DNA of 35,317 nucleotides, from positions 1 through 35,317 of the forward strand of contig CAISYW010000004.1 in assembly GCA_903889795.1 (NCBI GenBank), written 5' to 3'. Each line of letters begins with the position of its first letter. Positions within the stretch are counted from its first letter, which is position 1. Under the pieces are notes generated by a model. That model saw only the letters and a program-made list of their open reading frames with translations. It searched no databases and was not told where the DNA came from. Shown piece by piece: positions 11,679 to 22,388 of this stretch. This stretch comes from an uncultured Chlamydiae bacterium (lineage in GTDB: Bacteria > Chlamydiota > Chlamydiia > Chlamydiales > SM23-39). The translations under genes were made by a program, and so were the position numbers.

Positions 11679-12419
11679 ATGACTTATTCAGCGTTTCCTG
11701 AAAGAGACGCCTACATGATTGATGATGACGAATACGCCCAAGAACATATGAAGCCTCATAAGAGAATTCATTCTCTCGATTCCTGGCGTATTTTCCGCAT
11801 CATGTCGGAATTTGTCGACGGCTTTGAAACGATGACCTTTCTCGGTCCTTCCGTTGCCATTTTCGGATCAACCAACCCCAATCCCATAAATCCCCATTAT
11901 TATGAACTGACCACTCAACTGGCAGAAAAAATTGTCAAGAAAGGCTTTGCTATAATTACGGGCGGCGGCCCGGGTATCATGGAATGCGCAAATAAGGGGG
12001 CGCAAATGGGGGGCGGCAAATCATGCGGTCTCTGCATTAACCTTCCCAGCGAGGGAAAGCAAAATCCCTATATCGACCCCAAATATAAACTCGAGTTTCG
12101 CTATTTTTTCGTTCGAAAAGTAATGTTTGTTCGTTATGCGCAAGCCTTTGTCGTAATGCCGGGCGGCTTTGGCACTCTCGACGAACTCTTCGAAGCCCTG
12201 ACTCTCATTCAAACGGGCAAAATCAAATATTTTCCGGTTTATCTTGTCGGCAAAGATTATTGGAAAGGTCTTCTCGATTGGCTTCGCAATACGGTAATGG
12301 AGAATAATAACATTAAAAAAATTGATTTCGATCTCATTCGCCTTTCCGACGATCCCGATGAAATTGCCGAAGGCATTGAAAAGCACTACAGACAGACAAA
12401 GTCGATCGAAAACTTTTAA
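11679..12419 (+). CDS. LOG family nucleotide monophosphate nucleosidase-like protein (TIGR00730 type)
   Basis: ITGGGPGIME, FRYFFVRKVMFV and MPGGFGTLDELFEALTL motifs. Confidence 0.92.
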   Translation: MTYSAFPERDAYMIDDDEYAQEHMKPHKRIHSLDSWRIFRIMSEFVDGFETMTFLGPSVAIFGSTNPNPINPHYYELTTQLAEKIVKKGFAIITGGGPGIMECANKGAQMGGGKSCGLCINLPSEGKQNPYIDPKYKLEFRYFFVRKVMFVRYAQAFVVMPGGFGTLDELFEALTLIQTGKIKYFPVYLVGKDYWKGLLDWLRNTVMENNNIKKIDFDLIRLSDDPDEIAEGIEKHYRQTKSIENF

Positions 12420-12476: not shown

Positions 12477-12644
12477 GGAGTTGTCAAACAATAAGTTAAA
12501 GCATTACAAGGCCATTATACCGGATCATTTTTCACATGTTCTTGCGCAGAAGATATTGAACAAGAATATCTTCTACGCAAGAACATGTGAAACCTGAACC
12601 AGTCTAAGACCTTTTAATGCTATAACTTATTATTTGACATCTCC
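12477..12644. repeat. 168-bp imperfect palindrome
   Basis: Outer arms ggagttgtcaaacaataagttaaagcatta / taatgctataacttattatttgacatctcc (3 mismatches). Inner arms 12530-12557 / 12565-12592 (27/28) with a 7-nt loop. Confidence 0.92.
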
Positions 12645-12741
12645 TAACTCGTCTTATCCATACCATATACTTTTTAATTTAAATTACAAAAAAAACCCAA
12701 AAAAACTTATTATGTTCCACCTTTACAGCTAACGCAAAAAC

Positions 12742-14040
12742 ATGACATTAAAAAATGTTATCTTCAAGGATCCTCAGGTTGGATATTGCATAGCAAATCT
12801 AAGTATTGCTGAAGGCCGTATTCAAAAAATCGAGATACTTGATCGTTCGTTAAAAGATTTAAGCCAGGTTGATTTTTACGTCACACCGGGATTTGTTAAT
12901 TCTCATTTACACCCCAATCAACTCCTCGACCGACGATTGCTGGATGAGCTGAATATCTCCCAGCTTATTGACTGCATGCATGGGGATTACAAAAAAACTG
13001 ATCAGATACGTTATGCGCAAGCCGTTTTTGTTTTGATGGATGCAATCAAATCCGGGACCACATCTATTTATGCGGTAGCCAGCAATCCTTATCCTGTAAT
13101 CGATGCTTTCAAGAAATTACGAATAAAAGGCGCAGTGGCTTGTTTTTATAACGACCGATGGGAAGGCTTCGGAACACCCCCGGCTCTTTCTTTGCTTCAT
13201 GCCATCGAAGAGCAATTCAAGCAGGTCGTCAAAGAGAAAAACGAGCGTTTTGCGATTCACATCGGTTCCGCCTCTGTAGAGAGCGCTTCTAACGAATTAT
13301 TAGTCTTGATGGATCGCTTGGCAAAAGACTTTGCAAGTAAAGTCAATATTCATGTGTGCGAAGGGTGGGATTCTGTCCGCTCCTGCATGAATTCGCGGCA
13401 ACTTTCGCCGATTCATTTATTATCGCAGTTAAATGTTTTAGGTTCGCACTGGAACTTAATTCATGCTGCATCGCTTAATCCGGAAGAAATTGCTCTTATT
13501 GCTAAACATCAAGCGTCCGTTATTCATTGCCCTGTCAGCAATGCCAAAACCGGCGTTGGTATAGCACCCGTAATCGAGTTGATGAATCGAGGCGTCAGAA
13601 TTGGACTGGGAACCGATGCCTGCAGCAACAACAACACGAACAACATCCTCAACGAAGCCTATTTTGCCTCATTGATTCATGCGGCTGATCAACAAAATGC
13701 CAAGGCGCTCTCAGTTGAGACCCTAATGCAATGGATAACAACCCGGGGTCACGAAATTATCGGGACAGGTCAACAAGGAACCATTTCTGTTGGAGAACCC
13801 GCAGATTTGCTGCTCTGGTCACTTCATGAAAATTCCTTCGTGCCTCTCGCTTATGGCAAATTCGATGCGGCGCTGATCTATAATGCTCCCGATCTAAAAC
13901 CTCATACAGTGATAATTGATGGAGTCATCGTCGTTGAAAATTATACGTTTACACTACTTTCTGAGAAAGAAATCAGAGAAGAAGCCAATCAATGTGGCTT
14001 TAATATGCAAACATTTATGAACGGAAATATCTGCAAATGA
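12742..14040 (+). CDS. Amidohydrolase-superfamily metal-dependent deaminase (COG0402, MTA/SAH-, cytosine- or guanine-deaminase-like)
   Basis: PGFVNSHLH (HxH), IHVCE (HxxE), LIHA, HCPVSNAK, GLGTDA and GEPADL motifs. Confidence 0.88.
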   Translation: MTLKNVIFKDPQVGYCIANLSIAEGRIQKIEILDRSLKDLSQVDFYVTPGFVNSHLHPNQLLDRRLLDELNISQLIDCMHGDYKKTDQIRYAQAVFVLMDAIKSGTTSIYAVASNPYPVIDAFKKLRIKGAVACFYNDRWEGFGTPPALSLLHAIEEQFKQVVKEKNERFAIHIGSASVESASNELLVLMDRLAKDFASKVNIHVCEGWDSVRSCMNSRQLSPIHLLSQLNVLGSHWNLIHAASLNPEEIALIAKHQASVIHCPVSNAKTGVGIAPVIELMNRGVRIGLGTDACSNNNTNNILNEAYFASLIHAADQQNAKALSVETLMQWITTRGHEIIGTGQQGTISVGEPADLLLWSLHENSFVPLAYGKFDAALIYNAPDLKPHTVIIDGVIVVENYTFTLLSEKEIREEANQCGFNMQTFMNGNICK

Positions 14041-14597
14041 GTCAAAAAACACAGAGAAAGCTCGCGCTCTTAGGTAATACAGGAGTCGGCAAAGACACCT
14101 TTGTAAGGATTTTTCAAAAGCGATATGCATATCTTTCGATGCATTTGATTAAGTTGGCAACGCCGCTCTATGAGGGGCAAAATGCGATCTATGAGCTTTG
14201 CGGCAGAAAAATTGAACGGGAAGTTCAAGATGGAATTCTATTAAACTTTTTAGGGAATCACATGCGCCGCATCAATCCCGATGTGATCAAAGAGTGCTTT
14301 TTAAGAGACCTACATAAAAAAGGGCAAGAACCTGACTTAATCATCTGTCATGACACTCGTCCTCTTGATGTGTCCTTTGTCAGAGATGCGGGATTTTTTG
14401 TTTTGAATATTGCATCGGATTCAGAAATTGCCTTAGAACGCCGGAAAGCGCGCGGAGATTTATCCTTAGGGTCATCCGATCATCATACTGAAAAAGGGCT
14501 CTCAAGCGAGCTGTATGATGCACAGATTTTAAACAACGGAACTTTAGAAGACTTCGAACAAAAGATTGTAAAATTCATAGATGGGTGGTTTCTATGA
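14037..14597 (+). CDS. P-loop nucleotide monophosphate kinase (dNMP kinase-like)
   Basis: Walker A GNTGVGKDT, LATPLY, LLNFLG..MR, HDTR, HHTE and ILNNGTLEDF. ATGA overlap with the upstream gene. Confidence 0.78.
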   Translation: MSQKTQRKLALLGNTGVGKDTFVRIFQKRYAYLSMHLIKLATPLYEGQNAIYELCGRKIEREVQDGILLNFLGNHMRRINPDVIKECFLRDLHKKGQEPDLIICHDTRPLDVSFVRDAGFFVLNIASDSEIALERRKARGDLSLGSSDHHTEKGLSSELYDAQILNNGTLEDFEQKIVKFIDGWFL

Positions 14598-15139
14598 TTC
14601 TCACTGGTCAAGAAATAAAAAAACAAGTAGCTCTCAAGCGAATTCATATATCGCCTTTTATAAAAAACAACATCAATCCGAATAGCTACAATTATTGTTT
14701 GGCTTCAGAATTGCTCGAAATTATCGATAATCCCATCGACCCCAAGTCTGAGCAGCAATTTCGCAAAATTCAGATATCGGAAGAAGGGTATGTTCTTCAA
14801 CCGGGCCATCTTTATCTTGGCAGTACAATGGAAGAAATCGGCAGCGATTATTACGTCACAAGCTTGATTGGACGCTCATCCGTTGGAAGATTGGGAATAT
14901 TTGTACAAATTACCGCAGATTTAGGGCATCTGGGCGCCAAGCACCGCTGGACTCTTGAACTTAAAGTTGTACAACCGGTGATTTGTTATCCCGGAATGAA
15001 AATCGGCCAGGTCAGTTTCTGGAGCGTTAAAGGAGAAACGAAGCAGCTTTACCAAGGTAAATATGCTGAATATTCAAGTGCGCACCGCAGCGAAATCCAT
15101 CGAGAACTATCCTTAACAACAAATGAGATAACACTATGA
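14594..15139 (+). CDS. dcd: dCTP deaminase/dUTPase-fold protein, paralog A (Glu retained, motif Asp replaced by His)
   Basis: MILTG, INPNSYN, GRSSVGRLG, TADLGHLG, WTLE, YPGMKIGQ and YQGKY. Start set at ATG 14594 (ATGA overlap). Confidence 0.82.
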   Translation: MILTGQEIKKQVALKRIHISPFIKNNINPNSYNYCLASELLEIIDNPIDPKSEQQFRKIQISEEGYVLQPGHLYLGSTMEEIGSDYYVTSLIGRSSVGRLGIFVQITADLGHLGAKHRWTLELKVVQPVICYPGMKIGQVSFWSVKGETKQLYQGKYAEYSSAHRSEIHRELSLTTNEITL

Positions 15140-15651
15140 TCCTTAGTGGAATGAAAATTCAAGAGAAGGTTTTTTCAAACGAAATCACAATTGATCCATT
15201 TTTTCCTTCTCAAATCAACCCCAACTCCTACAACTTTCGACTTGGAAAGACGTTAAAAGTCTATGACGATGAAATCCTCGACCCGAAAAAAGAAAATAAG
15301 ACACGATTAATTGAGATTCCGTCGGAAGGATATCTTTTAGAGCCGACGAAACTTTATTTGGGTCACACCGAAGAGATCATGGGGAGCAATCTCTATGTTC
15401 CAATTATTCGCGGACGTTCTTCAATCGGCCGAATTGGCCTTTTTATCCACATTACCGCCGATTTGATCGATATAGGCTCAATTAATCAATGGACTTTGCA
15501 AATGCATTGCGTTCAGCCTTTACGAGTTTATTCCGGTATGTTAATAGGTCAGGTAACTTTCTGGACGGTGGAAGGCGAAATCAAGCTTTATAACGGAAAA
15601 TATCAAGGAAGCCGCGGACCAATGTCTTCGCAAATCCACCAAGATTTTTGA
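15136..15651 (+). CDS. dcd: dCTP deaminase/dUTPase-fold protein, paralog B (Asp retained, Glu replaced by Gln)
   Basis: MILSG, INPNSYNFRL, GRSSIGRIG, TADLIDIG, WTLQ and YNGKYQG. ATGA overlap. Confidence 0.82.
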   Translation: MILSGMKIQEKVFSNEITIDPFFPSQINPNSYNFRLGKTLKVYDDEILDPKKENKTRLIEIPSEGYLLEPTKLYLGHTEEIMGSNLYVPIIRGRSSIGRIGLFIHITADLIDIGSINQWTLQMHCVQPLRVYSGMLIGQVTFWTVEGEIKLYNGKYQGSRGPMSSQIHQDF

Positions 15652-15700
15652 CTGATTAATCAAAGGAAAAAAAGAAAACAAACAGAAGGGGATTAACAAC

Positions 15701-17206
15701 GTGGAGAAAGTAAACACTTTAGAAGACCAACAAACATCCAAATTTGGTAAGTGGCGTCAGCGCCTTTGGCCTGTACACGCCAGTGAGTCGAAAAAGTTTT
15801 TCCCTCTCTTGCTAATGAAATTGTGTATTTCATTCGTTTATACGATTTTATTAGCAACAAAAGACACCCTGATCGTCACATCGAAGGGTTCCGGAGCAGA
15901 GACAATTCCTATTTTAAAGGGTGGTTTCGTTCTCCTTTTTGCTTGTATTTTCATGATCATATATTCGAAATTAAGCAATCATCTATCGAAAAGCCGCCTT
16001 TTTTATGCGACTTTATTGCCATTTATTTGTTTTTTTGCGTTCTATGGATTTTTTCTTTATCCCAATCGCGAATGGCTTTTGCCTCATCAAACAGCTGACA
16101 AGCTTATTTCACTGATTGGGCCAGAACGCGCTCATTGGGTTGCCGTTTACCGCTACTGGATGGACTCGATATTTTTCTTGATGGCAGAACTGTGGGGCGG
16201 AGTCGTCATTGCATTATCCTTTTGGGGGTTGGCTAACCGCATCAACAACCTCAACGAAGCCTCACGATTTTATTCTTTGCTTTCCGCAGGAGGACATGTC
16301 GGGGTGATTATCGCCGGCCCGCTAATCTGGCATTTTTCCCATGCGTCTGATCACTTTGCTTTCACGATTCAATGGCTGATGGGAATCGTGTCAGGAGTAG
16401 GATTGCTGATACTATTTATTTATTGGTGGATCAATCGAAATATTATTCAAACACAAGAACATTTGGGACAAAAAAGAGCAAATGAACCAACTAAATTATC
16501 CCTCATTGACAGCCTCAAACATCTCATACGTTCGCCAAGCTTAAACTATATTGCCCTAATGGTCATCGGCTATAGTCTTTCTGTGAATATGATCGAAGTG
16601 GTTTGGAAAGCTGCCTTAAAAATTCAGTATCCGAATCCGCAAGACTACGAAGCCTTCATGGGGCTTCTAACCATGATTACCGGATGCGTGTCCCTGTTTA
16701 TTGCTCTCTTTGTCGGGGGTAATGTAATCCGTAAATTCGGTTGGTTCGTCGCCGCACAGGCTACCCCCGTTGTACTTGGATGTGCCTCGCTTCTTTTTTT
16801 AGGAGTTTATTTTTCAAATGACATATGGAATACCTCAACCGTATTTATGGGTGTAGGGGCTCTTACGCTACTCGTATTCATCGGAGCAATGCATAACGTT
16901 TCTTGCAAATCGATGAAGTATTGTCTCTTTGATCCCACAAGAGAGATGGCCTATATTCCTTTAGACGATGAAACCAAAGTTAAAGGAAAAGCGGCAGTCG
17001 ATGTCGTTGCTTCACGTTTTGGAAAATCCGGCTCTTCCTGGCTACAAGTGGTTTTTATGGAAATCGTAGGTACCGGTTCGATATTCGGCGTAGTGCCCTA
17101 TCTGGCGCCGTTCATACTCGTAGCCGTCGTTGGCTGGATCATTGCAATCTTTTATCTGCAGCGTCAAATCAATCAAAAATTGATCGTTTCAGCCGAAAAC
17201 GCGTAG
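15701..17206 (+). CDS. NTT/Tlc (ATP/ADP translocase family) nucleotide transporter, divergent paralog
   Basis: FGKWRQRLWPVH, TKDTLIVT, AELWG, FWGLAN and KYCLFDPTREMAYIPLD..KVKGKAAVDVVASRFGKSG motifs. GTG start. Confidence 0.93.
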   Translation: MEKVNTLEDQQTSKFGKWRQRLWPVHASESKKFFPLLLMKLCISFVYTILLATKDTLIVTSKGSGAETIPILKGGFVLLFACIFMIIYSKLSNHLSKSRLFYATLLPFICFFAFYGFFLYPNREWLLPHQTADKLISLIGPERAHWVAVYRYWMDSIFFLMAELWGGVVIALSFWGLANRINNLNEASRFYSLLSAGGHVGVIIAGPLIWHFSHASDHFAFTIQWLMGIVSGVGLLILFIYWWINRNIIQTQEHLGQKRANEPTKLSLIDSLKHLIRSPSLNYIALMVIGYSLSVNMIEVVWKAALKIQYPNPQDYEAFMGLLTMITGCVSLFIALFVGGNVIRKFGWFVAAQATPVVLGCASLLFLGVYFSNDIWNTSTVFMGVGALTLLVFIGAMHNVSCKSMKYCLFDPTREMAYIPLDDETKVKGKAAVDVVASRFGKSGSSWLQVVFMEIVGTGSIFGVVPYLAPFILVAVVGWIIAIFYLQRQINQKLIVSAENA

Positions 17207-17212
17207 AGCTTT

Positions 17213-17247
17213 ATTTCGCTGTCATTAAGTTATGATGACAGCGAAAT
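17213..17247. terminator. Probable bidirectional terminator hairpin
   Basis: Perfect 13-bp stem atttcgctgtcat / atgacagcgaaat, 6 nt after the NTT stop, between convergent genes. Confidence 0.7.
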
Positions 17248-17322
17248 TACCCCCTTAAACGGCTTTGTTGTATAAATAGCACCACAGAGATAGAAACCAC
17301 AGAGAAAGAACCCTCCATCAAA

Positions 17323-18732
17323 CTACATTTTTTTGAAAAAACCCAAATCCCTGAAAAGGGATAAATCATCCATGATGATTGTGAAAATAGAATACAATGC
17401 TGCATAAACTTTATTCAAACTCTTAAAATCAATGAATTTGAATATCTCAGTATAACTAAATACTTCAAGCGGAATGCAAAGCAAATTTAAAGCTAAGTTA
17501 ACAATGCCCATAAACTTAGAAAATTCCTGCGCAGCAATGCTTGTTTTAAAACATTGTTGAACTTTTGCTTGAAGGACTGCATTATTTTTTTCTGTTAATA
17601 GCTTCTCATCAACACCAAAACGATTCGCAATCAAACGTTTTTTGACTAATTTTTCTTCCATGCGTTTTTCAATTTTCGACTGAAAATGCCGGCATTTTTC
17701 GCAAATTTTTATTTTTTGCTCTTCAGTAACATTGACCAACCGCTCAATAAACCTTCGCGATGCTTTTTGTTTTTCGCGTAGGTTCAATTTTTCATTTTTC
17801 ACAATTCCTTCCTCAAAAAGACGTTGGTGTTTTTCGATGCTCTGTATGGTTTTAAAATTCGTCGACAGACTAACGAGCGAATCAGCCGTATAAGCGCCGT
17901 AATTTAATGAATATTTCAAAATACTAAAAACCAGAGCCACTATAAAACACACAATCAACAGTGGAGAAAAAGCAAAAAGTATAATTCCAAGAATCAACCC
18001 TAAAACTCCTTCAACAACAACAATCAATGCATTGATTATTTGCTTCTTAAAGATAGCGATCCCATCGACATCATGAACACTCTTAGCTTCTCGATATTGT
18101 TTAATCGATTGGGCCGTTTTGGTAATTCCCAATAAAATAGATAAGCACCCTTGAATCATTTGAAAAACTGCGATGCTGACGCCAAGAACCGAACTCAAAG
18201 TCGCAACCAAACAGGATATCCCCACAAGAGTCATCGCGAATTGTGCGAGACCGCATGATTTGCGAAAAGTGCCAATCACAGTAGACATTCGTTTCGCATG
18301 CTTTAGTACATTTTTCGTTAAAGGCGCTATCGGTTTAGGCGATGCAGATATAGCTTCTGACGTCCGACTAATTGATCGACCGATCAGTGAGCAGAATCGA
18401 TCCCAATATGAATGTTTTATCAAATTCAAATGAGCGGCATGCTCTTGAAGTTCTTTGATTGCGCTTCGTAGTTTTTCTGCCGTTTTTCCTTCAATCTGCC
18501 GATCTTTTCGGTTGGCTTCCTGGATAACCACCGATTTTGAGCCCGGTGTAAACCAAAGTTTTTTTTCTCCGACCTGGACACTATGACCGTTAATTTTAAT
18601 CGATAGAGAAGGTTTAAATTCGACAGCCCGATCTCCCGCCGATTCAAAAAAACACGATAAAGAATCTTCTGTTTTATTTTGAATCAAACTGGAATATTTA
18701 CAATGATGTAGCGGAAAACAAATACCCAGCAT
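17323..18732 (-). CDS. Multi-hydrophobic-segment protein, paralog 1 of 3 (Inc/T3SS-substrate-like)
   Basis: Shares IKINGH.VQVGEK..WF, IQGCLS, HDVDG, YTADS and IAAQE motifs with the two neighbouring ORFs. Long hydrophobic stretches separated by Lys/Glu-rich helices. Confidence 0.75.
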   Translation of the reverse strand: MLGICFPLHHCKYSSLIQNKTEDSLSCFFESAGDRAVEFKPSLSIKINGHSVQVGEKKLWFTPGSKSVVIQEANRKDRQIEGKTAEKLRSAIKELQEHAAHLNLIKHSYWDRFCSLIGRSISRTSEAISASPKPIAPLTKNVLKHAKRMSTVIGTFRKSCGLAQFAMTLVGISCLVATLSSVLGVSIAVFQMIQGCLSILLGITKTAQSIKQYREAKSVHDVDGIAIFKKQIINALIVVVEGVLGLILGIILFAFSPLLIVCFIVALVFSILKYSLNYGAYTADSLVSLSTNFKTIQSIEKHQRLFEEGIVKNEKLNLREKQKASRRFIERLVNVTEEQKIKICEKCRHFQSKIEKRMEEKLVKKRLIANRFGVDEKLLTEKNNAVLQAKVQQCFKTSIAAQEFSKFMGIVNLALNLLCIPLEVFSYTEIFKFIDFKSLNKVYAALYSIFTIIMDDLSLFRDLGFFKKM

Positions 18733-18855: not shown

Positions 18856-20637
18856 TTATTGGTACTCTTTTTTCAGAAACTTGCTCAAAAAAATTTGCCG
18901 CATCGAAAAGATTTTTTGCCCCAACGTAGGATGAAAACCAGCTGAATGAGTTATTTGATACCAACGACTTTTCTCGTGAACCTTGCGCTGACTCTTTTCA
19001 AAGAATTTTGTAAACCTGCCCAGGATATGTTCACAGAAGAAAAGAAAGTTGATCAGTATCCAACCACCGTCATTCTGTCCAACCAAAACTTTTCTCGGCA
19101 ACCCCATCTGTACGACATTACAGAAATTCTTTGCTTCGCTATTGGAAACGCCCGCTATCGAAAGTCCGGTTGGTATATCAATTAATAGACCCGATCCGAT
19201 AAGTGCCAGGCAAAGAATATTCAGAAATCTCGAAGCATCCTGTTGTGCAATATGATGTTCAAAACATTTTAAAACATTTTGAACGAGTTGATTATTTGGA
19301 TCTTTGAGAACTGCCTCCATTTTTTTCCGACCGAAACCAAAGGTTCTTTTCAGATCCCCCCGTTTTTTACCGAGTTTTTGCTGGATGCGCAGTCGAATCA
19401 GCTCTTCAATATTATCAAGTTCCGAAGGTAAAAGAGTCTCGCGATCGACTTTAGTACGGAATTTTGCAATTACTTTTTCGCGTATTTTCGCTTTTTCAAC
19501 CCCGGAAACTTCTTGAAATCTTCTCAGAAATCCCTTCGTAGCAGCTGTCATCTGCTCAGGGGTTAATCCACTATTATTCAAAATGTTGTGCAATAAATAA
19601 AGATGATGCTTATCAACAGACCGCAAGATTTTGTTCGCGAGGTGAATCTCAAGGGATGAATCGGCTGTGAACAAACCATAAACCAATATCCACGACAAAA
19701 TGGTATATGCAAGAGAAAGAGCGATTCCACCGGCAAGAAGCTGGGGACATGATAAAAACAAAATCCCAAGAGTAATCCAAAAAACACCCGTTAGTATGTT
19801 AACGAAGGCTATTCCTATCTTCAGACGTGCAATCTCCATTCCGGCGACATCGTGATTTTTCAGGCATTTATTATATGCCTTCACAGCCATATGAAGTTTG
19901 TAGATACCACGCACTAACGATGCGCATCCCTGCAAGATCCGAAATCCTGCGATGATCGATCCAAAGAGATACGCCGCATTCAGAACAGTGTGACCCGCGA
20001 TTGTCATCGTCTCCAAAAACCAGGGTGAAGACACAAGCGTTCCGATCACTTGAATTAGATCGAGCAGATTTCGAATCACGCCAACAGCGTCAATTCCAAT
20101 AATTGCGATCAAAAACATAATTGTTGAAAGATTTTTTTTAGCCCAAACCCTAATTTTATTAGCACCAATTTGGAGTCGCGTTTCCGGCTTTGAAACCGTC
20201 TCAGATGTCGAGGAAAGGATCATTTCAGAAATGCTTCCGATCAATGCTTTTGCACCCCATGCGACAGCATCGATCGCATTCCCGTAAGACTGCAACGCAG
20301 ACATTTCTCTCTTCATTACCTCTAAATCCGATGCATGCGCAGAAATTGCTTTAACAGCGTCTCGTACTGTTTTTGATTCTTTTTTAGAAAGAGGGGTTCC
20401 AACAACTTTTCCGTTTTCATAAAACTGGGGTTCACTGAGAACATTCTTGCTGTCCGAGTCAAACCAAAAAGCTTTTTCTCCAACGTCGACCCTATGCCCG
20501 GTAATTCTCATTTTTAGCGAAGTGTTCTGAGATAAATCAACCCCCAAAAATTGGCACAATGCATCTACCTTTGTATTCATCGGAGAAGAATACGACACAT
20601 GGCGCAAAGGGAAAGAGTACGTTTCTATAGTTGGCAT
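18856..20637 (-). CDS. Multi-hydrophobic-segment protein, paralog 2 of 3
   Basis: MPTIETYSFPLR, ITGHRVDVGEKAFWFD, IAGFRILQGC, KNHDVAG, CPQ, YGLFTADS and IAQQDA motifs. Confidence 0.8.
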   Translation of the reverse strand: MPTIETYSFPLRHVSYSSPMNTKVDALCQFLGVDLSQNTSLKMRITGHRVDVGEKAFWFDSDSKNVLSEPQFYENGKVVGTPLSKKESKTVRDAVKAISAHASDLEVMKREMSALQSYGNAIDAVAWGAKALIGSISEMILSSTSETVSKPETRLQIGANKIRVWAKKNLSTIMFLIAIIGIDAVGVIRNLLDLIQVIGTLVSSPWFLETMTIAGHTVLNAAYLFGSIIAGFRILQGCASLVRGIYKLHMAVKAYNKCLKNHDVAGMEIARLKIGIAFVNILTGVFWITLGILFLSCPQLLAGGIALSLAYTILSWILVYGLFTADSSLEIHLANKILRSVDKHHLYLLHNILNNSGLTPEQMTAATKGFLRRFQEVSGVEKAKIREKVIAKFRTKVDRETLLPSELDNIEELIRLRIQQKLGKKRGDLKRTFGFGRKKMEAVLKDPNNQLVQNVLKCFEHHIAQQDASRFLNILCLALIGSGLLIDIPTGLSIAGVSNSEAKNFCNVVQMGLPRKVLVGQNDGGWILINFLFFCEHILGRFTKFFEKSQRKVHEKSRWYQITHSAGFHPTLGQKIFSMRQIFLSKFLKKEYQ

Positions 20638-20714: not shown

Positions 20715-22388
20715 TTATATTGATTTACTATTAATAGCTTTAATGTCATGAGTCTGCGCCCACCAGCGAGTCTCTCGATGAGGCTTGGGCCCAATCTTTT
20801 GAAGCAAGCGCGTAACCCAGCTTAGAGTGGGAATATCTTCGCCAAGGTAGAAGCCGTTCACATTTATCCAGCCAAAATCATTCGTAACGCCCCAAGCACC
20901 CTCACCCATCCCCAAAGGCAAAATACTGCAGATGCTCTTCACAATCCCCACAGAATCAATTTTAAGAAGGTGTGCAATAACAGGGAAATCGCACTGAATA
21001 CCCAGAATATTCACAGCTAGGCAAATAATGGCCAGCAATCTCTGAGCATCCTGTTGAGCGATCGTTGTTTCAAATGATTTTAGAACTTGGTCAACAGGAG
21101 CGGATGATTTGAGAATCTCCCCAATCGTGGTAAGATTGAGCCCTAATGTCCTGTCCACATCGGCTCTTTTTTTATCGCGTTTATTTGCAATACGCCGTTC
21201 AATCTCTGATGGCAAAGGCTTATGTCCGAGCTTATTATTGAGTTTTTCGATCGCTTTGGCTTTGTCTTTTTCAGAAACCTCCGAGATTCTTTGGAGAAAC
21301 CGTTTTGTTGCATCGTTCATTTGCTTAAGACTTAAATGTTTGTTATTCAGAATTTCTTTGAAAAAATACAAATAATGCTTATCAATAACCTGCATGGTTT
21401 TGTTGACTATTTTCAACGAATTGACTGAATCTGCGGTGAATAATCCATAAAATAAAATCCATTGCGCCACGGTAAAGACGATAGCCACAGCAGTTCCGAC
21501 AACCATTGCTTGAGGACATGTTAACATCAGAACTCCAAGAGATACCCAGAAAAGCCCCGTTAAGATCGAAACCACAGCACCATTTCTCTGCGCTTTTGCT
21601 ATCTCCAAACCAACTGCATCGTGATTTTTTTCACACCGTTCGATGGCTTTGAGCGCGAGATGAAGTTTAGCGATACCGACTACTAGCGATATGCAGCCTT
21701 GAATAATCCTAAATCCTGCGATCCATTGGCCTAAAACAAGAGCCGCCTTCAAAACCTCCTGCCCCGCGATGAGAACGGTCTCTTGAAACCAGGGTGAGAA
21801 CACTGTAAGCGTTCCGATAACCAAGACCAAATCGATCAGATTTCGAATAACTCCAATTATATCGGATAAAGGAAAGAGAATCGTAAGTACTTTTTGAGCG
21901 AGAATATCAATTTTATTTGCCCGCTGTTGAGCGCAAGATATGGGTTCCGGTTTTGATATTTCGGGAGATATCAATTTACAGCTTCGTCCGATTAATGCTC
22001 GGACGCCGCTTGTTGCGGTGCAAATCAAATTCCCGCAAGCCTGTAGAACAGACTCTTCTTTCTTCATTAACCCTAAATCGGAGGCATGATCAGAGATTGC
22101 CTTGACGGCGCTTCGAATTGTTTTAGATTCTTTATCAGATAGAACTGCACCAACGACCTTGCCATTGGCTTTAAATCGAGGCTGGCAAAAAACCCTCTTG
22201 GTATCCGGATCAAACCAAAAAAATTTTTCACCAATCTCAACCTGATGTCCGGATATTTTAATTTTTACAGAGGGATCTTGAACCAAACCTTTCGGTAAAA
22301 ATTGACTTAACGCATCGGCCTTCGTTTGCAGGAAGGGAGAATAAGAAGCACCACGTAAAGGAAAAGAGTAAGTCTCAATAGTAGACAT
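20715..22388 (-). CDS. Multi-hydrophobic-segment protein, paralog 3 of 3
   Basis: MSTIETYSFPLR, ISGHQVEIGEKFFWFD, IAGFRIIQGC, KNHDAVG, CPQ, YGLFTADS and IAQQDA motifs. Confidence 0.8.
   Translation of the reverse strand: MSTIETYSFPLRGASYSPFLQTKADALSQFLPKGLVQDPSVKIKISGHQVEIGEKFFWFDPDTKRVFCQPRFKANGKVVGAVLSDKESKTIRSAVKAISDHASDLGLMKKEESVLQACGNLICTATSGVRALIGRSCKLISPEISKPEPISCAQQRANKIDILAQKVLTILFPLSDIIGVIRNLIDLVLVIGTLTVFSPWFQETVLIAGQEVLKAALVLGQWIAGFRIIQGCISLVVGIAKLHLALKAIERCEKNHDAVGLEIAKAQRNGAVVSILTGLFWVSLGVLMLTCPQAMVVGTAVAIVFTVAQWILFYGLFTADSVNSLKIVNKTMQVIDKHYLYFFKEILNNKHLSLKQMNDATKRFLQRISEVSEKDKAKAIEKLNNKLGHKPLPSEIERRIANKRDKKRADVDRTLGLNLTTIGEILKSSAPVDQVLKSFETTIAQQDAQRLLAIICLAVNILGIQCDFPVIAHLLKIDSVGIVKSICSILPLGMGEGAWGVTNDFGWINVNGFYLGEDIPTLSWVTRLLQKIGPKPHRETRWWAQTHDIKAINSKSI

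Follow-up and report, generated by a model that had tools for sequence, protein, structure and literature searches.

What would bring a deaminase, a kinase, two dCTP deaminase-like paralogs and a nucleotide transporter together in the genome of an uncultured Chlamydiae bacterium? The window that raises this question is an entire contig of 35,317 nt (CAISYW010000004.1), from a 1.57-Mb genome bin that is 83% complete. The open reading frame (ORF) listing of the window places five co-directional ORFs at positions 12742-17206, all on the + strand. These encode an amidohydrolase (12742-14040, 432 aa), a kinase (14037-14597, 186 aa), two paralogs with the fold of dCTP deaminase (Dcd), here called DcdA (14594-15139, 181 aa from its ATG, with an earlier GTG at 14585 also offered by the ORF listing) and DcdB (15136-15651, 171 aa), and a transporter of the NTT family (15701-17206, 501 aa, GTG start). 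The firm part of our answer is that the locus contains a mobile nucleotide-chemistry module, built on the kinase and a complementary Dcd pair. This core moves from phylum to phylum, taking up different partners; in the lineage of the window these are a deaminase of the COG0402 type and an NTT paralog of its own. As a whole, the five genes appear from sequence comparison to form one horizontally acquired putative operon for specialised nucleotide metabolism.

The core is defined by its recurrence. We compared 10 genome loci, obtained from a pattern scan of species genomes (four from Chlamydiota, in Parachlamydiales/Chlamydiia, one from Verrucomicrobia and five from Streptomyces), and 14 metagenome loci, five of which end at the kinase and one of which (L030) lies on a contig that truncates DcdB. 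Kinase, DcdA and DcdB occur in this order in 10 of the 10 genome loci, across three phyla, and in all nine metagenome loci whose contig passes the kinase. The sequence-only reading had asked whether amidohydrolase, kinase, DcdA and DcdB recur together elsewhere, and they do so at all five genome loci of the Planctomycetes-Verrucomicrobia-Chlamydiae (PVC) group and at 12 of the 14 metagenome loci. The amidohydrolase accompanies the triad in none of the five Streptomyces loci, where a protein with HD and TIR domains replaces it. Conservation does not extend to the five-gene form, as none of the 10 genome loci has the NTT; what is conserved is kinase-DcdA-DcdB.

The kinase was found in 5 of 401 sampled Chlamydiota genomes, and a kinase relative in 9 of 401 Streptomyces genomes. 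DcdB-type proteins are present in 6 of 400 Chlamydiota genomes, always with two matches each, and five of these six are the kinase genomes. A word-based search with the kinase through 5.8 billion proteins returned 23 at E <= 0.001, and a profile search through 1.84 billion returned 104 representatives at E <= 1e-30. At L014 a recombinase, DUF3987 and DUF5681 adjoin the cluster, which is a sign of mobility, and at L039 three tRNA genes stand directly before it. Only a four-gene cassette is common to all five Streptomyces loci; their flanks differ, save for L025 and L026, and the GC content at third codon positions is ~0.82 in the cassette and ~0.9 in the flanks. The 25 listed of the 52 Pfam families in the 41 flank ORFs are unrelated housekeeping families with no biosynthetic cluster around the cassette, and two transposase domains are among the same 25. 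A phage or viral origin was considered and is not supported, as kinase relatives in viral contigs amount to 0 of 34 pattern matches; for DcdB, 1 of 140 matches was to a viral contig, and this relative is distant (28% identity). The searched literature holds no description of the gene combination or of paired Dcd paralogs, the supplements on the Kongming defence system, which possibly list related operons, lying outside that search, and papers matching the PDB codes 8Y1W, 9LN0 and 9LN3 were unrelated ones only. We regard the cassette shared across phyla, a Dnk-like kinase with a complementary DcdA/DcdB pair, as previously undescribed.

The two Dcd paralogs are 48% identical, and both match PF22769 (DcdA 118.5 bits, 3.7e-34; DcdB 129.4 bits, 1.6e-37; cut-off 27). 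Against the TIGR02274 equivalog, with a cut-off of 92.8, DcdB passes at 96.9 and DcdA fails at 83.1, and neither paralog matches the trimeric dUTPase family PF00692 at E <= 0.01. Both retain the phosphate-binding motif GRSS and have their motifs in the same order as Dcd. They differ at two positions. One is the Glu of T-L-E, the catalytic deaminase residue of Dcd enzymes, its position being that of the PDB Dcd alignment, and the other is the Asp of ID-x-G, presumably the residue used by dUTPases. In the alignment to PDB 4xjc, DcdA keeps the deaminase Glu (WTLE) and the Asp is gone (ADLGH); DcdB reads WTLQ where 4xjc and 2qxx read TLE, and keeps the Asp (ADLIDIG). We compared these motifs in 16 DcdA and 15 DcdB sequences from three phyla, plus the distant pair of L016. 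The first motif is Q-x-T-A-D-L-G-(H/Q)-x-G in DcdA and (H/N)-I-T-A-D-L-I-D-I-G in DcdB, and the second is W-T-L-E in DcdA and W-T-L-Q in DcdB. Residues E122 and Q105 of DcdA are invariant in 15 orthologues, as are Q122, D112, I113 and G114 of DcdB.

With Gln instead of the T-L-E Glu, DcdB is therefore predicted to be non-deaminating, and in our reading only DcdA is able to deaminate. With the Asp used by dUTPases still in place, DcdB may be dUTPase-like; we predict it to be either that or a nucleotide-binding partner of DcdA, on the basis of Dcd and dUTPase enzymology and of a match to the archaeal-type dUTPase model NF002598 that lies below threshold (22.8 bits, 5.2e-5, cut-off 130). The earlier description of two Dcd-fold paralogs stands; they are not redundant enzymes but form a complementary pair in which DcdB is without the deaminase Glu. 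In canonical Dcd, an aromatic residue after the Asp screens out ribose. This residue is absent from both paralogs, and the sugar specificity of DcdA and DcdB may differ from that of the canonical enzyme.

In the tree, A and B form separate clades, each with PVC and Streptomyces rows. The duplication is therefore older than the spread, and the pair moves together. A natural fusion of the two is found in L033/L034, as a single 355-aa frame (L034:8540-9607); directly downstream of it, on the opposite strand, these loci carry two other NTT paralogs. DcdB-type proteins are widespread, with 1780 at E <= 1e-20, including proteins of candidate phyla radiation (CPR) bacteria. Among the best 120 of these 1780, 103 read WTLQ, 14 read WTLM and one reads WTLK, and none reads WTLE, two having failed to match the pattern. 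Relatives of DcdB in Saccharibacteria, Brennerbacteria, Paenibacillus tundrae, Nocardia abscessus and Nonomuraea carry the name "dCTP deaminase". For DcdB-type proteins this naming is probably a systematic mis-annotation, to judge from the motif, and the annotation of at least 1780 database proteins is affected, in that a DcdB-type partner without the catalytic residue is routinely given as "dCTP deaminase".

In the chlamydial lineage of the window, the five genes are an addition to an otherwise syntenic region. Three relatives, G173 (of the same genus), G804 and G805, have the flanks YitT-LOG and w22471-w23425 in order at 71-88% identity, and none of the five operon genes lies between those flanks in any of the three. 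In five related genomes, the closest NTT reaches 46-47% identity, compared with 75-88% for flanking genes. Since the five genes are jointly missing from three syntenic relatives, and the NTT has no orthologue there, the unit is accessory, the transporter included; the absence of the whole block also bears out the earlier claim that this is one unit. The genome encodes two other full-length NTTs, which share 42% and 35% identity with that of the operon. At metagenome locus L031, where the core genes are 61-76% identical to those of the window, an NTT stands in the same place after dcdB and is 62% identical. Given this value and the lower identity elsewhere, the operon NTT is, in this lineage, a paralog specific to the cluster. 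The NTT is thus dedicated, as had been proposed, in the sense of a cluster-specific paralog, but it is not a fixed partner, as NTT, MFS and ABC transporters interchange between loci.

A separate canonical Dcd (contig C82) and a separate Tmk (contig C184) are encoded elsewhere in the same genome, so that the operon does not hold the genome's only dcd and tmk equivalents. The housekeeping Dcd of C82 is distant from the operon paralogs, and was undetected by tblastn at 1e-3. The sequence-only reading had also called for a check on separate canonical dut and thyX genes; in this incomplete bin, no PF00692 dUTPase above cut-off and no ThyX were found. All four of the other chlamydial genomes with the cluster have ThyX, and ThyA was found in none of the five.

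The family assignments made earlier for all five genes are upheld, as Amidohydro_1, PF21448/phrog_139, PF22769 twice, and TLC/NTT. The kinase matches PF21448 (DNMK) at 29.4 bits against a cut-off of 27.1, covering only positions 146-232 of the 232 of the profile, and matches the deoxynucleoside monophosphate (dNMP) kinase family phrog_139 over residues 1-181 (7.5e-18); no PDB entry matches it by sequence. The P-loop GxxGxGKD (G13, G16, G18, K19, D20) is invariant in 16 kinase relatives, as are D106-x-R108 and the lid arginines. An AlphaFold2 model of the kinase has a pLDDT of 86, and a Foldseek search with it lists dephospho-CoA kinases first, with nucleoside monophosphate (NMP) kinases also present and T4 Dnk (1dek) at rank 20; the Atlas look-alikes bear DNMK. 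The kinase is predicted on these grounds to have the NMP-kinase fold and to be of the T4 Dnk-like, dNMP kinase kind. No kinase-Dcd fusion was seen among the longer relatives searched, which is weak evidence, and where the representative library has a fused kinase, the partner is a protein other than Dcd.

The amidohydrolase matches Amidohydro_1 (PF01979) at 129.2 bits (2.8e-37). Its best NCBIfam matches are purine and nucleoside deaminases, all far below cut-off (the best 159.5 vs 522), and no named COG0402 equivalog was reached among 25 of 25 listed rows, which include 5'-deoxyadenosine, MTA/SAH, 8-oxoguanine, guanine and cytosine deaminases. By sequence, its best PDB matches are 4dyk/4gbd, the MTA/SAH deaminase 4f0r, and 8-oxoguanine and guanine deaminases, and its HxH, H-x-x-E, His and Asp positions align with those of 4dyk. 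It is a probable COG0402-type metal-dependent deaminase of a base, nucleoside or nucleotide, and has no paralog in the genome. The NTT matches PF03219 over residues 10-489 (506.4 bits vs 21, 1.2e-151) and TIGR00769 at 458.9 against a cut-off of 387.2.

The partners of the core vary considerably from locus to locus. An NTT occurs with the cluster in three lineages, namely that of the window, L031 and L033/L034; an MFS transporter is found at L014/L020, L021 and L016, and an ABC exporter at L016/L017. Other neighbours in Chlamydiota are an Xre-type HTH protein, HIT, HAD, PNP and an aminotransferase, and LuxR is a further partner among the variants. Proteins of the STAND NTPase-TPR kind (NB-ARC or AAA_16 type) adjoin the cluster in four loci (L022:1077-6703; L021:3456-5702; L015:1748-5974; L032:742-4950). 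L022 has two of them, the second overlapping the start of the amidohydrolase gene, and those of L015 and L032 have a caspase domain or similarity to a protein bearing it. In Streptomyces, the first gene of the cassette encodes a 665-aa protein in five of five loci (L023-L027; L026:6007-8004), 91-92% conserved and translationally coupled to kinase-DcdA-DcdB. The N-terminus of this protein is homologous to the EF1143/SAMHD1 dNTPases (2o6i at 2.5e-15; SAMHD1 at ~1e-6), with an HD motif that reads QD, and a TIR_2 domain forms the C-terminus (E 3.3e-6; its 28 bits lie at the cut-off).

More distant kinase/Dcd variants are found in 7 further Streptomyces genomes of the 401 and in one further chlamydial genome, G201, and A/B pairs occur in 3 of 401 sampled genomes of other Actinomycetota, one of which, G401, has the HD/TIR cassette. 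The partners in the distant variants, several of them assigned by PDB sequence matches only, comprise APH-like, phosphodiesterase-like and 5'-nucleotidase-like proteins, a methyltransferase, a GT4-like glycosyltransferase, a desaturase, a Na/H exchanger, and a DcdB-like domain in fusion with PPDK_N/PEP-utilizers. Loci L057 and L062 (from one Streptomyces genome), L060 and L061 encode a second and larger system, in which the kinase and an A-type Dcd are combined with the phosphodiesterase-like protein and a P-loop-like protein of ~350 aa. L057 and L062 add a B-type Dcd domain, which is the one in fusion with PPDK_N/PEP-utilizers, and a desaturase is present at L062, where alone it was scanned for. 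Fusions of the kinase, either with the 350-aa protein or with the phosphodiesterase-like one, also occur among database proteins. At L067 of the chlamydial genome G201 (L067:7332-9547), a 394-aa protein with a P450-like cysteine motif, recognised by eye, stands between an A-type and a B-type Dcd, and no kinase was detected at this locus.

The boundaries of the unit in the window are well marked. Three ATGA stop/start overlaps, read from the sequence at 14037, 14594 and 15136, join the four enzyme genes, and a spacer of 49 nt (15652-15700, + strand) separates dcdB from the NTT gene, with a purine-rich stretch, AGAAGGGG, 8 nt 5' of the NTT GTG. These overlaps, the 49-nt gap, the co-directional arrangement of the five genes and a hairpin at the 3' end had all been described before, and each is confirmed. 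The left hairpin (about 12530-12592, + strand) lies between a LOG-family gene and the amidohydrolase, and is near-perfect and unusually long, with 27 paired bases (-43.3 kcal/mol, z -12.1; none of 200 shuffles equals it). It is likely the terminator of the upstream LOG-family gene and the left edge of the unit, although its role may be just that of a terminator. The right hairpin (17213-17247, + strand), between the NTT gene and the convergent downstream gene, folds at -20 kcal/mol with a stem of 15 bp (z -7.8; matched by none of 200 shuffles) and forms the right edge; it was missed by a consensus terminator scan because no T-run follows the stem. With strong hairpins at both ends, the five-gene unit is therefore bracketed on each side. 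Inside it, promoter-like sites show no excess (14, vs 13.5 +/- 3.9 in shuffles), and the sole + strand terminator-like site is an unconvincing 5-bp stem within dcdB. The LOG-family gene (11679-12419) was considered as a member of the unit and rejected, as it is kept in cluster-less relatives and a strong hairpin intervenes.

Just downstream of the unit, on the - strand, are three paralogous membrane-type proteins (17323-18732, 18856-20637 and 20715-22388). The first two have no Pfam match, and all three match a single G173 gene at the syntenic site with 27-28% identity, which suggests that a lineage-specific family has expanded at this site. DNA near-identical to positions 12600-17300 of the window is present in freshwater and sediment metagenome runs of 14 studies, and seven runs contain at least half of the sampled words.

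What the unit does must be read from these elements. The explanation we favour, tentatively and short of an even chance, is an accessory pathway in which a deaminated, non-canonical nucleotide or nucleoside is made or processed and is exchanged with the host. The kinase, together with the general nucleoside diphosphate kinase of the cell, would convert a cytosine-type (deoxy)nucleoside monophosphate to the triphosphate, which DcdA would deaminate. DcdB, probably heteromeric with DcdA, would then bind the triphosphate or hydrolyse it in a dUTPase-like manner, and the amidohydrolase would perform a second deamination, on the same or a purine nucleotide. The NTT, as a member of an exchanger family, would couple the pathway to the host nucleotide pool, taking precursor in or product out. 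The role of such a pathway would be accessory, and secondary-metabolite-like or conflict-related, rather than housekeeping thymidylate supply. The tailoring-type and export-type partners seen in variants favour this explanation. An extra NTT paralog tied to a defined enzyme set offers a concrete handle on exchange between environmental chlamydiae and their hosts beyond energy and standard nucleotides. Several points weigh on the other side. The DcdA-DcdB heteromer is one that we infer, and the role of the Asp, along with a dUTPase-like DcdB, draws on the enzymology of Dcd and dUTPase and on one weak, sub-threshold match to a hidden Markov model. As DcdB is widespread, the pair could in some lineages be an ordinary split dCTP-deaminase/dUTPase. 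The PVC form comprises degradative or salvage-type classes only (deaminases, a kinase, a pyrophosphatase-like protein) and could equally serve salvage; the HD/TIR swap in Streptomyces and the STAND NTPases at four PVC loci point to immunity; and the Streptomyces flanks, in the Pfam families listed above, show no biosynthetic cluster.

Three other explanations need to be set against it. That ordinary nucleotide-metabolism genes lie together by chance and form no functional unit might be supposed from the fact that all five families are common in bacteria, but this is contradicted by the three stop/start overlaps, the gene order shared by 10 of 10 genome loci in three phyla, the joint absence from syntenic relatives and the natural DcdA-DcdB fusion, and we give it almost no credence. 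A salvage or sanitising pathway has considerably more to recommend it, even if we think it unlikely to be the answer. Cytosine-type deoxynucleotides would be phosphorylated, deaminated and cut to dUMP/dTMP, with the NTT importing the substrate; the substrates may be 5-methyl-dCMP or 5-hydroxymethyl-dCMP of host or viral DNA, and the amidohydrolase would salvage a purine or modified base. The established pathway runs from dCMP through dCTP and dUTP to dUMP, and the kinase, the deaminase-competent DcdA and the Asp-retaining DcdB reproduce this textbook order. Neighbours of salvage type (HIT, HAD, PNP, 5'-nucleotidase-like), close DcdB relatives in CPR bacteria with reduced genomes, and the linkage to a transporter in the obligate intracellular Chlamydiota, and not in Verrucomicrobia or the Streptomyces cassette, are in keeping with it, as are the lack of ThyA in the five cluster-bearing chlamydial genomes and of a PF00692 dUTPase above cut-off in that of the window. 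However, this genome already has a canonical Dcd and a Tmk, and ThyX is present in the four other cluster-bearing genomes. A needed pathway would also not be expected to be as rare as the cluster (5-6 of about 400 genomes), nor to be inserted, and the HD/TIR, P450-like (by eye), methyltransferase and glycosyltransferase-like partners fit salvage poorly.

The remaining explanation is an immune system, in which the core, on infection, would drain and uracilate the pool of dNTPs, as in AvcD/dCTP-deaminase defence, or would produce a deaminated dNTP as an alarm, the part that dITP plays in Kongming. The deaminase-dead DcdB or the QD-altered HD domain would be the sensor, and the TIR protein or the amidohydrolase the effector. 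All five Streptomyces loci open with the SAMHD1-like-HD/TIR protein, so that the same module may serve in bacterial immunity there; STAND-TPR proteins adjoin the cluster in L022, L021, L015 and L032, and the distribution is patchy and mobile. Kongming, which consists of the deaminase KomA, the dead HAM1 protein KomB and the SIR2 protein KomC and signals through dITP, with the dNMP kinase supplied by the phage (10.1101/2024.12.20.629578), provides a precedent for a dead nucleotide hydrolase as sensor and for a deaminase and dNMP kinase that make a signal. Among the PADLOC models, the kinase faintly matches the kinase part of the dCTPase model (E 0.0066, 13.3 bits). There is no other match for the five proteins, with 0 families at E <= 0.01 for the amidohydrolase, DcdA, DcdB and NTT, RADAR included. 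Transporters, exporters, an aminotransferase, HAD, HIT and PNP are unusual in defence systems, and no suicide effector can be recognised in the PVC form. Genes of the STAND-TPR kind may moreover be common in these genomes, so that their adjacency may be chance, and L015, L032 and L021 are related loci and not independent cases. No defence families are among the 25 listed families of the Streptomyces flanks, and there is no phage link, the kinase family not having been found in viral contigs. On balance we consider an immune system unlikely, to the same degree as salvage. We would also mention, as a long shot, a symbiont weapon or alarm against viruses: a deaminated deoxynucleotide of the dUTP/dITP type, built by the kinase, the Dcd pair and the amidohydrolase and exported by the NTT into the amoeba cytosol, would poison the cytoplasmic DNA factories of giant viruses, and in Streptomyces an altered SAMHD1-like domain would sense the same nucleotide and turn on a TIR NADase. 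Protection of amoebae against giant viruses by Parachlamydia has been reported, without a mechanism (PMC9457554), and the antiviral nucleotide, if real, would provide a molecular route for chlamydial protection of that kind.

Compared with known systems, the NTT is a full-length TLC member above both curated cut-offs, like the chlamydial and rickettsial NTTs; unlike them, it is an extra paralog found only with the cluster (in the window lineage and L031), and is 35-47% identical to the NTTs of its own and related genomes. The amidohydrolase resembles the COG0402 deaminases (the group of MTA/SAH, 8-oxoguanine and guanine deaminases and atrazine chlorohydrolase) in fold and in its metal and catalytic positions, but falls below all their equivalog cut-offs and is found with a Dcd pair. 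With phage T4 Dnk (1dek, PF21448, phrog_139) the kinase has in common the family matches, the NMP-kinase fold, the P-loop and the lid arginines, whereas its match to PF21448 is confined to the C-terminal part and the fold search favours dephospho-CoA kinases.

The claim of the sequence-only reading that the operon differs from AvcD and Kongming is upheld by membership, as no CDA-fold, HAM1 or SIR2 match was obtained. AvcD is a single polypeptide with a zinc CDA-fold deaminase part and a P-loop kinase-like part. Like this anti-phage defence, the subject of a preprint by Tal et al. (10.1101/2021.04.26.441389), the operon combines a P-loop kinase-like part with a dCTP-deaminating part, and both systems are accessory and patchy. 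Unlike AvcD, it has separate genes and the unrelated Dcd fold, and neither Dcd paralog matches the PADLOC dCTPase model. To Kongming the operon is similar in the logic of a deaminase and a dNMP kinase leading to a deaminated dNTP, and in a hydrolase homologue with a catalytic residue replaced; a domain of NAD-cleaving type is likewise present, but it is a TIR domain and occurs in the Streptomyces form only. It differs in its self-encoded kinase, in all of its folds and in the lack of an NADase in the PVC form. HAM1 and SIR2 were not seen in Pfam scans covering the operon and four neighbouring genes, nor in PADLOC, whose 2023 version may predate Kongming. Finally, the paralogs have the same PF22769 domain, GRSS motif and motif order as Dcd and the bifunctional dCTP deaminase-dUTPases (4xjc, 2qxx, 1ogh, 1xs1), and DcdA keeps their Glu. 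Unlike any of these enzymes, they form a diverged pair with complementary losses, are fused in one lineage and are linked to a Dnk-like kinase. If the predicted association is real, a Dcd-fold heteromer with its catalytic residues split over two paralogs would be a new build of this enzyme class.

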